IMG/VR virus record: IMGVR_UViG_3300042453_001906
Direction: 5' to 3' (one strand)
Origin: an uncultured virus (IMG/VR IMGVR_UViG_3300042453_001906)
Lineage: Duplodnaviria > Heunggongvirae > Uroviricota > Caudoviricetes
DNA: 20,000 bases
The notes under the pieces are model-generated. The model saw nothing but the letters and a program-made list of their open reading frames with translations. It searched no databases and was not told the DNA's origin. The number at the start of each line of letters is the position of its first letter. The stretch's first letter is position 1. Shown here one piece after another: positions 1-19,919 of this stretch. A program made the position numbers and the translations under genes.

Positions 1-1788
1 ATGAAAATGCTGCCCGAAAAGATGGCAGCAAAAATTCCTCTTGTTGGTGGAATGATAAGCCGTTCCCTTCAGAGAAGACGAGAGCAGAAAGAGGAAGAAG
101 CACAAGCCCTATCAACACTCACGGAAGAAATCTCTAGAGCGGGAAGAACTTCATTGTACGGAAGGCGTGGAGGCAGCGAGATTGGGCCGACGCTCACAAC
201 ACCCGACATGGGGATGGGGATGGGGACAGCGGAGCCACCCATACCCGGTGGAACCACGGTTGCAGAAATCACGAACACGAAGGGAGCAAAAGGCGGATTC
301 GACAAGTCTGCCGTGGTAACCCTTAAAGCGATACTGCTGAATGTTCAAGACATCAAAAAACTGTTGTTTGATCAGTATGATCCAGAAGATCAAGAACTAA
401 AAGCAGAAGAAGCCAGCCGCGAAGAAGAAAACAAGCGGATCAATGCTCTTCAAAAAATGAAGGGTTTGTTTGGTGGAAAAGGCGGTGGGGCGGGAGGGGC
501 TACTACGGGCGAAAGCGGTGGATTTATTTCCTCAATTTTGGACTTTTTTGGACTGGGAAACCTTTCCAGTATTCTTGGCTCTGCTGCGTCAACCATCGGT
601 AGTTTGGTTTCTAGCCTTGGACCAATGCTATCTGGTATTGCAACCACGCTTGGAGGTCTTGCAACCACGGTTGCTGGAGCGGTGGGATCGGTTGTTACCA
701 CTATTGGTGGTGCGGCAGCGGCTGCTGCGCCTTGGGTTGCCGCAGCAGCGGCAGGGGCTGCACTTGGTCTTGGTGCAGCATGGGTGGTAAACAAGGGTAT
801 TGACGCAGTATTTGGCACAGACCTGTCAGATCGGATGTTTGATTCCGATACATGGACTTTCGATGACGCACGGCGTGATGCTGAAAGAGAAGAACTTGGT
901 GCTAAAATAACTGCTGAACACGAGCGGCAAACCAGTACTCCAGAGTACATTCAAAGAATGTCCGAAGACCCCAGAATGTTGCCAAAACTCGTAAGCGACA
1001 AAAAGTTGACAGGCGCACAAGCACTTGAATCTCTGACAAAGTATGAAATGCAACATGGTCCCGGAGAAGACACAAAGGCAATTCGTGAAAGAATCTTGCA
1101 ACTAGACCCATCTGCAAGAAATGAGGTAATGCCAGTAGAGGGCATGAACAATGGAACCGTTGAAGGCATGGACAATGGAACCGTTGAAGGCATGGACAAT
1201 GGAACCGTTGAAGGCATGGACAATGGAACCGTTGAAGGCATGGACAATGGAACCGTTGAAGGCATGGACAATGGAACCGTTGAAGGCATGAACAATAGAA
1301 CCGTTGAAGGCATGAACAATGGAACCGTTGAAGGCATGAACAATGGAACCGTTGAAGGCACAAGGCGTGAAAGAATCTGGCGTGAAAGTATCTTGCAACT
1401 AGACCCATCTGCAAGAAATGAGGTAATGCCAGTAGAGGGCATGGACAATAGAACAGTTGAGGGCACAAGGCGTGAAAGAATCTTGCAACTAGACCCATCT
1501 GCAAGAAATGAGGTAATGCCAGTAGAGGGCATGGACAATGGAACAGTTAAAGGCACAATTGTTCCTCCGGGTGAAAAAAACATCACCCAACAAACTCTAA
1601 ACACGCTTGAACAAAGCCAAGACGCTCTTGCTGCTGAAACAATGGGCCCACCAGCACCCATAGGCATGAACACGGTCGTTGCTCCTACCACAAACAACAG
1701 CAACACCACCATCAACAACAACAGCGGAAACAGCGGTGTTCGCAACAACGACCCCACCCTGAAAGCAGCAGAACGAGCGTCCATGTAA
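1..1788 (+). CDS. Putative baseplate hub / tail-length determinant (gp29-like) protein; may extend upstream of the window
   Basis: 595-aa ORF with charged helical segments, a long Gly/Ala-rich hydrophobic stretch and a C-terminal Asn/Thr-rich tail (NTVVAPTTNNSNTTINNNSG..VRNNDPTL) resembling T4-like hub/tape-measure proteins; converges on gp32. Function is inferred. Confidence 0.55.
   Translation: MKMLPEKMAAKIPLVGGMISRSLQRRREQKEEEAQALSTLTEEISRAGRTSLYGRRGGSEIGPTLTTPDMGMGMGTAEPPIPGGTTVAEITNTKGAKGGFDKSAVVTLKAILLNVQDIKKLLFDQYDPEDQELKAEEASREEENKRINALQKMKGLFGGKGGGAGGATTGESGGFISSILDFFGLGNLSSILGSAASTIGSLVSSLGPMLSGIATTLGGLATTVAGAVGSVVTTIGGAAAAAAPWVAAAAAGAALGLGAAWVVNKGIDAVFGTDLSDRMFDSDTWTFDDARRDAEREELGAKITAEHERQTSTPEYIQRMSEDPRMLPKLVSDKKLTGAQALESLTKYEMQHGPGEDTKAIRERILQLDPSARNEVMPVEGMNNGTVEGMDNGTVEGMDNGTVEGMDNGTVEGMDNGTVEGMDNGTVEGMNNRTVEGMNNGTVEGMNNGTVEGTRRERIWRESILQLDPSARNEVMPVEGMDNRTVEGTRRERILQLDPSARNEVMPVEGMDNGTVKGTIVPPGEKNITQQTLNTLEQSQDALAAETMGPPAPIGMNTVVAPTTNNSNTTINNNSGNSGVRNNDPTLKAAERASM
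1084..1560 (+). repeat. Nested in-frame coding tandem repeat: 9 x 24 bp inside the first of 3 copies of a ~90-bp unit
   Basis: GARGGCATGRACAATRGAACCGTT (EGM[D/N]N[G/R]TV) x9 at 1138-1353; the larger unit CGTGAAAGWATCTTGCAACTAGACCCATCTGCAAGAAATGAGGTAATGCCAGTAGAGGGCATG starts at 1084, 1381 and 1471. Confidence 0.97.
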
Positions 1789-2899: not shown

Positions 2900-3136
2900 T
2901 CAAATTGGTAGTTTTGTCTTCTTGGGAAGCAGATTCAGGTCTTGCCCCTCGGCGCGAATCTTCTCAATAATTGGCTTGTTTAAGAATTTCGCTGCCACTT
3001 GTGGCTCTATGCCGTAGCGTTCGCAAACAGCGATCACCGAATCAATATACGAAACACTGTACTTTTTTGCGTGGGCTTCCACTTCTTTTGGAAACCGTAT
3101 GTTGTTTACTTCCATCGGTAGCCTTTCTTCGCTCAT
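2900..3136 (-). CDS. gp33: Late transcription co-activator, T4 gp33 family
   Basis: 78 aa with F..EVE......SYIDSVI..CE...IE....K.L.KPI.EKI..E...LNLLPK..KLPI, the pattern of cyanophage-type gp33; next to gp32. Confidence 0.9.
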   Translation of the reverse strand: MSEERLPMEVNNIRFPKEVEAHAKKYSVSYIDSVIAVCERYGIEPQVAAKFLNKPIIEKIRAEGQDLNLLPKKTKLPI

Positions 3137-3211: not shown

Positions 3212-3412
3212 TCAAGAATACTGAACCTGTCTCCGGTACTGCTTTTGCTGTCTGTCTTCTCGCTTGGCAGCGGCATACAGACCCTGCGTGAATCCGCAGT
3301 GCTTGCCGTCATCGTAGCCCCTAGTGTAGCCAATGTTGTACAGTTTCAGCAGACCCGCGACAAACGCAGCCCCTGCTCCGATAGCGTAAGAAATGAGTTC
3401 TAGTGTTTCCAT
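3212..3412 (-). CDS. Small membrane-anchored hypothetical protein
   Basis: 66 aa; N-terminal hydrophobic helix followed by GxxxG repeats (GYTRGYDDGKHCGFTQG). Confidence 0.7.
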   Translation of the reverse strand: METLELISYAIGAGAAFVAGLLKLYNIGYTRGYDDGKHCGFTQGLYAAAKREDRQQKQYRRQVQYS

Positions 3413-3455
3413 GCCCTATGTTCATCTATGCGTTTCTTGAACTGTTCCTTAACAA

Positions 3456-3761: not shown

Positions 3762-3842
3762 AGCGTAGTGAGGGGCTTGCACCCATGCTCAATCACCGTT
3801 TGCAACCAGTGATCCTAGTCAGCGTCACACACTGAACTACGC
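3762..3842 (-). ncRNA. tRNA-like small RNA with a non-canonical cloverleaf
   Basis: Perfect 7-bp acceptor-like stem GCGTAGT/ACTACGC enclosing three arms: TCAGT/GCTGA, GATCACTG/CGGTGATT (loop GTTGCAAA) and a bulged T-like arm GAG(CATG)GG-TGCAAGC-CCCTC; G.U pairs favour the minus strand; 3 nt from tRNA-Asn. Confidence 0.65.
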
Positions 3843-3850
3843 AAAAAAAG

Positions 3851-4090
3851 TGGCGGCTTTTGGATGGAGCCGCCGAACCATTCAGACGAGTGCTGTGTGC
3901 CACGGTACTCTGAGTCCACCGCTGCAAGAAGCCCAATCTTCTCTTGCATTCCGCGCATATCTTGTGTCCTTAAGGACACAAGTACCGTTGGTTTTTCCTG
4001 CGTTTGTTGGTGATCAGCCGACCGTGATCATCGGTGCAGGAGGGATAGGCGCAATTAACAATATAAGTGTCAGTTTTTACTATGGTTCAT
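3851..4090. ncRNA. Unidentified highly structured intergenic element (RNA or ssDNA)
   Basis: At least 6 stems, including a perfect 22-bp palindrome (3961-3982) and long-range pairs 3875-3881/4082-4088 and 3902-3909/3981-3988; no credible ORF. Confidence 0.55.
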
Positions 4091-4103
4091 GGTAAATCCT
4101 TAA

Positions 4104-4176
4104 TGAGCCTACGGGGATTCGAACCCCGGTCAAGGGCTTGAAAGGCCCCTATCCTAAACCGCTAGACGATAGGCCC
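4104..4176 (-). tRNA. tRNA-Glu(UUC)
   Basis: Acceptor GGGCCTA/TAGGCTC-A, anticodon arm GGGGC-CT TTC AA-GCCCT, T-loop TTCGAAT. Confidence 0.96.
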
Positions 4177-4182
4177 GTTGGT

Positions 4183-4521
4183 TCAGTACGGATAGCCGTA
4201 CTGACCGTAGTTTGGAACAACCACCGGAACTGGAACAGTGGGCAGGACAGGAGGCATTCCTCCGTAGCCGCCGCCGTAAAACGGCATACCCATGCCGCCG
4301 TACATTCCGTAACCACCGTAACCAAAGCCGTAGTCGCGGACATGGACGGACTGCTCGGAAGTACCCGTAAAGTTCGGATTGTAGTTGTATCCGTTGCTCT
4401 TGTTTTCGTAAATCTCCGTGGAACCATTCGCGTGTTTCACCGTTCGGGTGATGTTGGTCTGCGTGTAGCAGCCACACAGGAGGACGGAAGCAGAAGAAAG
4501 AACGAGCGCAGCAGAACGCAT
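4183..4521 (-). CDS. Putative lipoprotein with Gly/Tyr-rich C-terminal region
   Basis: Signal peptide ending in a lipobox-like LLCG-C; GFGYGGYGMYGGMGMPFYGGGYGG; SD GGAG. Confidence 0.8.
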   Translation of the reverse strand: MRSAALVLSSASVLLCGCYTQTNITRTVKHANGSTEIYENKSNGYNYNPNFTGTSEQSVHVRDYGFGYGGYGMYGGMGMPFYGGGYGGMPPVLPTVPVPVVVPNYGQYGYPY

Positions 4522-4540
4522 TAGAGTCTCCGTGGTTGGA

Positions 4541-4942
4541 TTAGCGAATGATGAACTGACCGTTGCACACCGGGTAGACAGGGACAGCGCACCCGCCGTA
4601 ATACGGCATCACGACTGCGGGGTAGTACGGTGCGCCGTAGCATCGCGTAAACGGCGAGTACACAGGCACACAGGGAGCAGCCCCGTATCCATAGCCGCCG
4701 TAGCCGTAGCCACCGCCGTAGCCGTAGCCACTGACGGCATTCATGCCGATGCTGCCACCGATGGAGGTGTTGCTGATGGACGCGGACTTGCCGTTCGGGC
4801 CGGTAACCGTGGTCTTGCTGTACGAGCCACCAAAGTTCACGCCGATACCACTGCCACCATAGCCGTATTGGGCATGGGCAGAAGCCGTGAACAGTGTGGA
4901 AGCGGCAAGAACGGCAGATGAAACGAGTGTCTTCAGTAGCAT
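4541..4942 (-). CDS. Putative secreted Gly/Tyr-rich protein
   Basis: Sec signal peptide with AHA-Q cleavage site; GYGYGGGYGYGGYGYG; SD GAAAGG; own promoter upstream. Confidence 0.8.
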   Translation of the reverse strand: MLLKTLVSSAVLAASTLFTASAHAQYGYGGSGIGVNFGGSYSKTTVTGPNGKSASISNTSIGGSIGMNAVSGYGYGGGYGYGGYGYGAAPCVPVYSPFTRCYGAPYYPAVVMPYYGGCAVPVYPVCNGQFIIR

Positions 4943-5151: not shown

Positions 5152-6000
5152 TCAGTCAGCAAAATCCTCGTAGATTGTGATCCACTTGGGTTCTTCGCCA
5201 CGGCGGAGGTACGCAGCCTTGGCAAAATTCCACTCTTCTCGTTCTTGCATCTTGTAACCCGAGCGGTGCTTCTTGGCATAACGCTGTGCAGCGTCTTGGT
5301 CGTCAAAATACTCGTAGTTGCCTTCCGAATCCATTGCTCCGAAAAGACCACTGGAAGTCTTCCACACATCACCGGGCTTGTGCTTTTGTGCAGAAGTAGC
5401 AGACTCACCGGACTTTTCCTGTGATTCACTGCCTTGCTGTGGTTCATCCTTCACATTGAACACGAACTTGGTGTCCTTGTGTGCGCCTTTACGCAATTGA
5501 GAGAAGAACTGCACTACCTTGTGCTTTGCAAGTTCAAGGTTGTTTTGTCCTTCACCCTTCTTGAATCGCATAAGAACCTTTCCGATTCCTGCCGATTCAT
5601 TGGTTCCAATGTAGTAAAAGTCTTCGTTGTTTTTGTACATCACTGAGTGCTGCTTGTAATGCCGACCCAACTGCACAATTTCAGACTTTTTGATGTTCGG
5701 TATGAGCAAACTGAGTTCTTCAACCACGCCGCCCTCTTCTTGGTAGCCGCCGCGTAGTTCAATATATCCGTAACCCATCGAACGAACCTTCTTTTTGAGG
5801 TCGTCATGGAGTTTTTTGTTCTGCTCACGCGAATTTTCGCCACGGAAAGCGGAAACAATGCCAAAATCCTTCTCATCGTCTTCCACATACTGAAAAACGC
5901 GAGACAATTTGGCCTCAACGAGGGGCGTTTCGGTGACTTCCGAGCGAGAAATCCACTCGTTTAGTCCCTGACGATCAAGATATTGAGAGAATTTCTTCAT
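5152..6000 (-). CDS. DUF3293-like domain protein, candidate internal head protein
   Basis: Core pattern GIVSAFRG..S...N......L........GY....G.Y.E......E.S..I........LG..Y.Q.SV; N-terminus MKKFSQYL...LNE...LVE resembles the T4 capsid-targeting sequence; late box CTAAATA at 6031-6037. Confidence 0.7.
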   Translation of the reverse strand: MKKFSQYLDRQGLNEWISRSEVTETPLVEAKLSRVFQYVEDDEKDFGIVSAFRGENSREQNKKLHDDLKKKVRSMGYGYIELRGGYQEEGGVVEELSLLIPNIKKSEIVQLGRHYKQHSVMYKNNEDFYYIGTNESAGIGKVLMRFKKGEGQNNLELAKHKVVQFFSQLRKGAHKDTKFVFNVKDEPQQGSESQEKSGESATSAQKHKPGDVWKTSSGLFGAMDSEGNYEYFDDQDAAQRYAKKHRSGYKMQEREEWNFAKAAYLRRGEEPKWITIYEDFAD

Positions 6001-11419: not shown

Positions 11420-11454
11420 GCACTTTCCTCCAGTCTCCTATTTAGACCAAAAGG

Positions 11455-11477
11455 AAAAAGGAGCCTTGCGGCTCCTC
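11455..11477 (-). terminator. Intrinsic terminator of the tmRNA gene
   Basis: GAGGAGCC-GCAA-GGCTCCTTTTT; immediately followed by a late promoter box. Confidence 0.88.
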
Positions 11478-11800
11478 TTTCTGCCCGTTCAGATGCGGGA
11501 GGGCTTTCCCCACGGCTTCAAGCCGCCATTGCCAGTCTGTTGGCAATTATGGTTGCAACAGGTTTTTTAACGAGGCTCTGTAACCCGCCCCGGATGCCTC
11601 TTGCTTCTCTAATCCGCGCTAGTCGATTCCATTTCGACCCCGTGTCCCGGAGGCTAGCACTCCGGGGGTTGCCCCGCTGCACCGGGGACTTGACTCGCCG
11701 TCCCCGAAAACTTGCAGTAGCAATCAGGTTAGGCTAATGGAGTCGGGGGGATTCGAACCCCCGTGCTATTCGCGTTTCGATCCACCGTCAACAGCATCAC
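11478..11800 (-). ncRNA. ssrA: Circularly permuted (two-piece) tmRNA gene
   Basis: Acceptor piece ~11800-11738 ends GGGGG TTCGAAT CCCCC CGACTCC-A; intervening segment 11737-11642; coding piece starts at 11641 with GGGGTCGAAATGGAATCGAC; G3.U70 and A73; pk1 at 11592-11560; resume context ATAATT-GCC; tag ANRLAMAA* at 11544-11518. Confidence 0.92.
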
Positions 11801-12014
11801 TGTATCTATTCAATTCAGTGCCCCAACCACTCTCACGGATGCTTTCTTCCCACCGTTCCCGAATGTCTGCGGGGAACGGGTAGTGCTTGCACACTTGCCG
11901 GGCCCTTAGACGAATGCTACGGGGCACTCGGGGAGTCTTTTTAGGATCAAGCAGGTCGTACAAAAAGTTTCGGGTTGCAATCAGCGCGTGTAGTTCTTCA
12001 TGCGGAAGGGTCAT
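11766..12014 (-). CDS. BPSL0761-like family protein
   Basis: MTLP.E...AL...R.FL.DLLDPKKTPRVP..IR.RAR...KHYP pattern; its 3' end overlaps the tmRNA acceptor piece. Confidence 0.78.
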   Translation of the reverse strand: MTLPHEELHALIATRNFLYDLLDPKKTPRVPRSIRLRARQVCKHYPFPADIRERWEESIRESGWGTELNRYSDAVDGGSKRE

Positions 12015-19457: not shown

Positions 19458-19919
19458 TCATATTTCGTTGTCTTGCTCCACCCACCGGAAAGAATTTCCG
19501 TGAGAAATAAGAGCCGCGATTGGTTCAACAACCGAATCAATACTGTAGAAAGCGATTTGAGCATTTTTGTATCCTCCGTTTTCCAAACTCATGCTCATGC
19601 TCTTTCTTCCAACGGGATTCATGGAATGGCACACCACAAACCCAATATCGGGAGTGTGTTCACGAATCCAATTCACGATGGCAGTTCCGTCACGCCAACC
19701 CATCTTGGTGTCCCAATCACCGGGGTCTTCAAGATCGTGGTCTAGAAACACGATGTTCCACTTGCCGCTCTTCAGAGCCGAAATGGTTTCATCATAGTCC
19801 CGTGCCCACACAAACTCTACATGATCGGTTTCCTCGTTCCTGAACATTTCACAGAAGTACTCCCATCTGTGGTTGGAATCGTCAACGAACAAGACTTTTC
19901 TTTTTTCGGGTTTCATCAT
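19458..19919 (-). CDS. Cyclic-phosphate-processing receiver-domain protein
   Basis: LFVDD, WARDYDE, FLDHDL, DG..IVNWI and HSMNPVGR..M; the DHDL and HS.NP motifs distinguish this clade from signalling receivers. Confidence 0.85.
   Translation of the reverse strand: MMKPEKRKVLFVDDSNHRWEYFCEMFRNEETDHVEFVWARDYDETISALKSGKWNIVFLDHDLEDPGDWDTKMGWRDGTAIVNWIREHTPDIGFVVCHSMNPVGRKSMSMSLENGGYKNAQIAFYSIDSVVEPIAALISHGNSFRWVEQDNEI

Follow-up and report, generated by a model that had tools for sequence, protein, structure and literature searches.

A conserved structured RNA at the start of tRNA gene clusters in uncultured T4-like phages from fresh water

That phage tRNA clusters can encode small RNAs besides the tRNAs has been known for fifty years. 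What these RNAs do is an old question; in T4 it concerns two small stable RNAs from the tRNA region, RNAC (species 1, 139 nt) and RNAD (species 2, 119 nt), which are described as still unexplained (PMC3014915, PMC9697503). The present work concerns a 20,000-nt stretch of DNA from an uncultured virus (IMG/VR record IMGVR_UViG_3300042453_001906), called the window below, in which a reading made from the letters alone (the sequence-only reading) had picked out a multibranched structure at positions 3851–4090, inside the tRNA cluster and folding best on the plus strand. We find that this region holds the gene of a structured RNA, located at the head of the phage tRNA gene cluster, and that the RNA belongs to a conserved, previously uncatalogued family of non-coding RNAs. 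The transcribed strand is probably the minus strand, which is also that of the neighbouring genes. The carriers of the RNA are uncultured freshwater T4-like phages, and it is abundant in lake viromes.

Relatives were collected through gp32 and with two pattern scans, of which the scans gave 25 viral and 40 metagenome loci. The core motif was present in 51 distinct stretches, eight of which, from metagenome loci, are chance matches without other similarity and 43 of which are real; three stretches are interrupted by contig ends, and 36 distinct full-length copies were available for comparison. These copies form a short class of 196–197 nt (n = 4), a medium class of 212–220 nt that includes the window (n = 14) and a long class of 260–265 nt (n = 18). 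The classes have their 5′ and 3′ parts in common while the central domain is swapped, being a 7-bp hairpin with a TTCG loop in the short class, a palindromic hairpin in the medium class and about 90 nt with three helices in the long class. The element is single-copy in the window and in all three genome-size records, one of which is a complete 147-kb genome, and no second copy or template/variable repeat pair was found within the window. With its conservation in 43 loci and its compensatory changes, the element bears out the proposal of the sequence-only reading that a multibranched, functional structured nucleic acid is encoded here.

That reading had also recognised no known family, and our searches agree. 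With the whole window, Rfam 15 returned only tRNAs and a permuted tmRNA at the gathering score, and one copy per class (window, long and short) gave only chance-level matches at E ≤ 10, far below the gathering scores; none of the riboswitch or T-box models in Rfam matched the element copies. Among 50,697 deposited phage genomes, T4 included, blastn (word size 11) found no match to the core at E ≤ 0.01. In bacterial and archaeal genomes a loose 17-base pattern hit at least 120 loci, and nhmmer found no relative among the matches listed, the best having an E-value of 0.011 over 27 nt. No description of such an RNA turned up in the full-text literature, in which word searches cannot find a sequence family.

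Read from 4050 to 3843 on the minus strand, the RNA is predicted to consist of a long-range closing helix, a three-hairpin 5′ domain, the exchangeable central domain, a hairpin with a T(T/C)GGG loop, an 18-nt block and a GC hairpin followed by a U-tract (Table 1). Six helices are supported by compensatory changes. Pairs were counted from class-wise alignments with register-free duplex extraction; a MAFFT alignment of all classes misaligns P4 and shifts P2 by one column. Helix P2 has 237 Watson-Crick cells, 5 G.U and no mismatch, and P4 has 224 Watson-Crick, 22 G.U, no A.C and 6 other cells. The fourth pair of P2a is G-C in 13 copies, A-U in 9, U-A in 2, C-G in 2, U.G in 1 and A.C in 9. Compensatory variants of the 3′ hairpin are GACGGC/GCCGTC (five copies) and GGTGGC/GCCACC (one copy), with one internal G.U. 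In 12 of the 14 medium-class copies, leaving out L055 and L128 with their differing central hairpins, 97.3% of 560 cells pair and nine pairs are changed on both sides, against 3.6 ± 1.3 in shuffles (0/500); when the partner was slid out of register at most 51% of cells paired. The alifold z-score of the medium class on the minus strand is −6.7.

Table 1. Positions of the structured RNA, its parts and its immediate neighbours in the window.
Feature	Positions	Strand	Remarks
tRNA-Glu(UUC), upstream neighbour	4104–4176	−	same strand as the structured RNA
Shine-Dalgarno-like AAGGA	4097–4101	−	6 nt before the mini-ORF start
Leader mini-ORF (short open reading frame) MNHSKN*	4070–4090	−	with AAGGA at 4101–4097
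Structured RNA core, P1 5′ strand to T-run end	3843–4050	−	conservation from GCC (4050–4048) to the T-run in 36 distinct copies
Putative closing helix P1	4050–4048/3901–3899	−	invariant
Helix P2, around hairpins P2a and P2b	3996–4041 (4041–4036 with 4001–3996)	−	six distinct variants
Hairpin P2a	4021–4035	−	ACCN/N′GGT, 7-nt loop (window ATGATCA); six variants
Hairpin P2b	4009–4019	−	2–4 bp stem, loop YTGAYNN (window CTGATCA); six stem variants, all Watson-Crick (GG/CC, GC/GC, GA/TC, longer forms)
Central variable-domain hairpin	3961–3982	−	22-bp palindrome of the window; medium class: 5/9 pairs changed on both sides
Hairpin P4	3924–3947 (3947–3941 with 3930–3924)	−	loop with invariant T(T/C)GGG; eight stem variants across classes, several double changes
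Putative helix P5	3921–3918/3906–3903	−	invariant
Near-invariant 18-nt block TCAGAGTACCGTGGCACA	3896–3913	−	holds the 3′ strands of P5 (3906–3903) and P1 (3901–3899)
GC-rich 3′ hairpin	3851–3875	−	7–8 bp, 9-nt loop, −13.2 kcal/mol; nine variants across classes
T7 run	3843–3849	−	directly after the 3′ hairpin; 5–10 T in 36/36 copies
tRNA-like gene	3763–3842	−	7-bp acceptor stem GCGTAGT/ACTACGC, long central hairpin (8-nt loop), T-arm-like hairpin (loop TGCAAGC)

Seventeen of the 18 positions of the block are invariant in the 36 distinct copies, the fifteenth being G for A in L066 alone. The loop core of P2a (window loop 4025–4031, minus strand) is GATC in 29 copies and GTAC in seven, both self-complementary, and to judge from these letters it is possible that two molecules pair with each other through this palindrome as a kissing-loop homodimer. 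The double change preserves self-complementarity (TGATCA/TGTACA in the medium and short classes) and could be one inherited event. Pairing between the P2a and P2b loops was rejected, the former changing from GATC to GTAC in seven copies while the latter stays GATC or GAC, without covariation. A pseudoknot of AATGG (3882–3878) with CCAT(T/C) of the 3′ hairpin loop was not counted as evidence: the C variant of the loop always comes with an A-run that is 2 nt shorter (six copies, two classes), maybe as one linked block.

The features listed in the sequence-only reading are all where it had put them, namely the hairpin at 3851–3875, the gaaccat/atggttc helix (3875–3881/4082–4088), the palindrome (a perfect 22-bp one, matched on both strands), the mini-ORF, and the hairpin with T7 on the minus strand (3849–3843). 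Its helices fared differently among relatives. Compensatory changes support the palindrome hairpin (medium class) and the 3′ hairpin; gaaccat/atggttc, gttggtgatca/tgatcatcggt and gagtgctgtg/cacggtactc are peculiar to the window sequence or its class and are not conserved. As a closing helix gaaccat/atggttc was rejected, leader complementarity to AATGGTT being 6.36/7 compared to 6.09/7 in shuffled leaders, which is chance level. In the plus-strand helix gagtgctgtg/cacggtactc, 26 of 360 cells are mismatched on either strand, and there is no compensation because one side is invariant, the other varying freely; in the long plus-strand hairpin gttggtgatca/tgatcatcggt it is 45 of 198 cells. The helices that give the plus strand its advantage in folding are therefore not conserved among relatives, and most of the additional G.U pairs of the plus strand lie in such helices.

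The call for the minus strand rests mainly on transcription signals, because folding energies favour the plus strand across the family. A minus-strand GC hairpin followed by 5–10 T ends all 36 full copies and adjoins a co-directional tRNA or tRNA-like gene. A consensus terminator scan of the window did not list this hairpin, as the scan takes loops of 3–8 nt and the loop here has 9. Every tRNA found beside the element is co-directional with it (34/36 loci). In L055 and L089 a promoter TTGACT-16-TATACT (10/12 matches, with TG) lies on the minus strand about 45 nt upstream. The leader has a Shine-Dalgarno (SD) sequence and an ATG-started mini-ORF of 3–9 codons, with its stop 1–20 nt before GCC, in 30 of the 36 distinct copies, and the other six (the L056 group) have the upstream gene's own stop codon at the equivalent place. 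An AGGA-type motif is found 5–8 nt before the ATG in most relatives, regardless of the upstream gene. The peptide is conserved neither in sequence nor in length and no single codon is enriched.

Covariation and a strand bias of G.U pairs had been proposed as checks by the sequence-only reading. Compensatory changes were found; the bias favours the minus strand and not the plus strand, with P2a as the exception. In the minus orientation the G.U:A.C counts of the covarying helices are 22:0 in P4, 10:3 in the 3′ hairpin, 11:6 in the central hairpins and 5:0 in P2, and for identical medium-class helices 97.3% of cells pair on the minus strand versus 90.2% on the plus strand. The tetraloops in this orientation are TTCG in the short-class hairpin and GTAA in L048 and L128, and unpaired residues are 35.6% A and 22.8% U; such loops and A-rich unpaired regions suit the minus strand.

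The window is from a T4-type phage; a Pfam scan identified gp32 (1840–2793), the late-transcription coactivator gp33 (2900–3136) and GMP reductase, all on the minus strand. By gp32, its closest deposited relatives are T4-like cyanophages at about 55% identity. ARAGORN and Rfam together give the window eight tRNAs and one permuted tmRNA. A same-strand tRNA-Glu lies within 110 nt of the element in 33 of the 36 loci and at +179 in one, and two flanks have no tRNA call. In 14 loci tRNA-Glu(UUC) starts at 0/+1 after the T-run, in 15 a tRNA-like gene of about 80 nt stands between the element and tRNA-Glu(UUC), and the order of the window, with tRNA-Glu(UUC) upstream of the element, occurs in four.

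In the window the T-run adjoins the first base (3842) of the tRNA-like gene, which was not called as a tRNA by ARAGORN at default settings or by Rfam at E ≤ 10. The gene is kept in relatives, with a compensatory change in the acceptor stem (GCGTAGT/ACTACGC versus GCGCGGT/GCCGCGC). Some relatives have a longer form with an extra arm, and the gene is found both with and without the structured RNA. Two loci that lack the element are informative on how it is placed. In close relatives with about 90% identical gp32, represented by L009, the site between tRNA-Glu and tRNA-Ser is taken by the gene of a very basic 54-aa protein with its own SD (L009 1470–1640, plus strand), which looks like a cassette exchange within the tRNA cluster. 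In L081 a related hairpin alone sits between the upstream gene and the tRNA-like gene. The folded domain is thus an insertable module between a stop codon and a pre-existing hairpin.

Folding energies speak for the plus strand and weigh against the reading given above. Folded as RNA, 3851–4090 reaches −94.0 kcal/mol on the plus strand (200 dinucleotide shuffles: mean −69.9, sd 4.7, z −5.14, 0/200 as good) and −76.0 kcal/mol on the minus strand (z −2.74, 1/200 as good), so the sequence-only reading was right about the better strand. It had counted about eight G.U positions on the plus strand, an undercount, since the minimum free energy (MFE) fold holds 15 G.U among 78 pairs there and 7 among 73 on the minus strand. 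The MFE is likewise lower on the plus strand in 33 of 36 copies (means −77.0 versus −69.1), as is the z-score in 10 of the 12 copies examined with 25 shuffles each (L055 −6.2 versus −1.4, L125 −5.2 versus −0.6). By class the alifold z-scores for minus and plus are −2.7/−2.4 (short), −6.7/−6.8 (medium) and −2.8/−4.8 (long), which we read as equal or better on plus. Some pair counts agree with this: P2a has a G.U:A.C ratio of 1:9, its nine A.C (G.U on the plus strand) being the fourth pair of long-class copies, 14 copies with TGCGCC have C.A beside P1, and the medium-class ratio is only 13:7 once three never-varying G.U pairs are left out. The family-wide bias is thus real, and we have no full explanation for it, although much of the gain is G.U pairing between segments opposite each other that are invariant and C-rich or A-rich on the minus strand; the G+U content of the plus strand is only 50–54%. 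These energies and A.C pairs would suit the proposal of the sequence-only reading that the functional molecule is a highly structured antisense RNA, made from the plus strand opposite the leader of the tRNA operon. We consider this improbable, as the helices specific to the plus strand are lost in relatives, G.U exceeds A.C in the covarying helices when read on the minus strand, whose loops and A-rich unpaired regions also fit better, and the T-run conserved in all 36 copies would have no role on the plus strand. No conserved plus-strand promoter or terminator was found, the upstream gene on that strand being tRNA-Glu in some loci and the tRNA-like gene in others, and in a promoter scan of the window the sole plus-strand promoter-like site faces away from the element (1 site versus 0.8 in shuffles). 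Strand calls in general call for caution, as transcription signals can point to one strand while the other folds better throughout a family (z about −5 versus −2). The same reading had offered a structured single-stranded DNA or a reverse-transcript product, and a DNA-level structure (a replication or recombination signal, a retron-like product or a cluster of protein-binding palindromes) could draw on the window's perfect palindrome and on its two TGATCA sites, which are 14 nt apart; DNA hairpins are also compatible with the covariation, because Watson-Crick covariation is strand-symmetric. We give this very little weight: the palindrome is replaced by unrelated hairpins in the other classes, the TGATCA pair is not kept, and G.U-tolerant covariation, the terminator and RNA-library contigs indicate RNA. 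The families RVT_1 and Y1_Tnp, the only two searched for, were absent from all three related genome-size records (one complete, controls positive), and neither was among the 31 window ORFs scanned against Pfam. Least credible, to the point of being negligible, is a protein-coding gene (the 81-aa plus-strand ORF 3850–4095) or a non-functional spacer that merely looks structured. In 19 of 36 copies a plus-strand frame without stops does extend over 75% or more of the region, but variable columns are spread evenly over the codon positions (36, 37 and 32) without periodicity, the length differences among copies are not multiples of three, the classes have exchanged their central part, one block is invariant at 17 of its 18 positions, and helices have compensatory changes.

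The explanation we favour, at roughly even chances, is a structured non-coding RNA of about 200 nt that is made with the tRNA operon from the minus strand, is stable and acts in trans, a counterpart of T4 RNAC/RNAD by position. It would be transcribed co-directionally with its neighbours as part of the tRNA operon transcript, and host tRNA-processing enzymes would release it from the polycistronic precursor, with RNase P presumably cutting at the downstream tRNA. Excision from a precursor seems most likely because the following tRNA or tRNA-like gene begins directly after the U-tract, which would thus be its 5′ leader. The freed RNA may persist as a stable RNA and may use its invariant core to act on a partner in trans. 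Whereas conservation, compensation, architecture, single copy and presence in RNA libraries are observed, processing, stability and action in trans are inferred. Helices P1 and P5 are plausible, and covariation neither tests nor refutes them because they never vary. In RNA libraries of four studies there are contigs inside the core or across its 3′ end (3871–4045, which is a whole 176-nt contig, 3893–4034, 3805–4050 and 3782–3939); they hint at expression and read-through, but they have no strand and may come from DNA; in the four runs no contig fell on the flanking protein genes (3300–3440 and 4190–4700), an absence that is no evidence. A cis-regulator would fit equally well with a strong terminator that lies too close to the tRNA for a promoter to stand between them. 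Such a regulator would be an attenuator of the tRNA operon, whose conserved domain senses a ligand, a protein, a tRNA or translation of the mini-ORF and sets stop versus read-through at the hairpin and U-tract, and we keep it as the main, though less probable, alternative. The folded domain stands directly before an intrinsic terminator in 36/36 copies, the downstream genes have no promoter of their own, and in 14 loci the GC hairpin and its 5–10 U are followed by tRNA-Glu at 0/+1 (in the window by the tRNA-like gene at +1). As no promoter fits in between, expression of the tRNA requires read-through, possibly regulated, and two of the contigs (3782–3939 and 3805–4050) do bridge the hairpin into the tRNA-like gene. 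The SD and short ORF stopping just before the closing helix, or the upstream gene's stop in the L056 group, fit as well, and an invariant core with a variable periphery resembles an aptamer. What argues against it is that inspection of the alignments showed no conserved anti-terminator pairing, although a systematic search for alternative folds was not made, and the best candidate, the 5′ strand of P5 with the 3′ strand of the hairpin, is uncompensated in the GACGGC/GCCGTC variant. The leader is complementary to AATGGTT only to the extent expected by chance, the peptide shows no constraint on length or sequence, Rfam gave no match to a riboswitch or T-box model, loci of the window type (4/36) have tRNA-Glu upstream of the element, and L081 has a related hairpin before the same tRNA-like gene without any sensor domain. 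In its widest form, an aptamer-sized domain, preceded by the SD and mini-ORF and closed by a 7–10-U terminator, would gate the whole phage tRNA operon, leader translation or a ligand setting the phage's tRNA output, which we regard as doubtful.

Other genes of the window were noted along the way. The permuted (two-piece) tmRNA gene (11427–11829, minus strand) encodes the tag peptide ANRLAMAA* (ARAGORN; Rfam tmRNA_permuted, 68.9 bits). Two small Gly/Tyr-rich ORFs of 112 and 133 aa (4183–4521 and 4541–4942, minus strand) have signal-like N-terminal segments, one followed by Cys, and match no Pfam family; homologous genes are upstream of the element in most relatives. A 595-aa ORF (1–1788, plus strand) has about ten tandem 8-residue units (VEGMDNGT) and long Ala/Gly-rich tracts, also without a Pfam family. 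Further minus-strand genes encode an S-adenosylmethionine lyase-family protein (5152–6000, E 3e-10) and a protein with a cyclic-phosphate-processing receiver domain (cREC_REC, 19458–19919, E 7e-16), around which the ORFs otherwise belong to no family.

Compared with described systems, the locus has the same order of parts as a riboswitch or leader-peptide attenuator, that is, a promoter, an SD with a short ORF, a conserved folded domain, an intrinsic terminator and downstream genes. The downstream genes here are tRNAs, however, no anti-terminator was found on alignment inspection, the mini-ORF has no enriched codon, and attenuation would not need a folded domain of anything like this size. We are aware of no tRNA genes controlled by an upstream riboswitch or attenuator, and if the element were an attenuator it would be the first known case of a regulatory RNA that governs the expression of tRNA genes. 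GOLLD and ROOL, the large ornate RNAs of bacteria and phages in Rfam, often adjoin tRNA genes and are several times longer than the ~200-nt RNA described here. They too are orphan, highly structured RNAs from environmental and phage sequences, but the new RNA has no Rfam match at the gathering score or at E ≤ 10.

The closest likeness is to T4 RNAC and RNAD, which are likewise encoded by non-tRNA genes within the tRNA cluster of a T4-type phage, co-directional with and adjoining a tRNA gene (annotation NC_000866); the window encodes gp32 and gp33 homologues and has the element among co-directional tRNAs. The differences are that there is no sequence similarity (blastn of the core against phage records including T4), that RNAC and RNAD sit at the 3′ end of their cluster while the new RNA is at the head, and that it is 1.5–2 times longer. 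Read from the T4 sequence, rnaC has a T-arm-like hairpin and rnaD a CCA end, whereas the new RNA ends in a GC hairpin and U-tract. The family is therefore new and its kind, an extra RNA in a phage tRNA cluster, already known, because the likeness to RNAC and RNAD holds in position and kind but not in sequence or in a tRNA-like 3′ end. For study it provides 36 distinct copies, a block invariant at 17 of 18 positions, helices backed by compensatory changes and, in its three size classes, natural domain swaps from which the exchangeable parts can be told. Next to RNAC and RNAD, it is a second, independent and far better constrained example of the extra RNAs of phage tRNA clusters.

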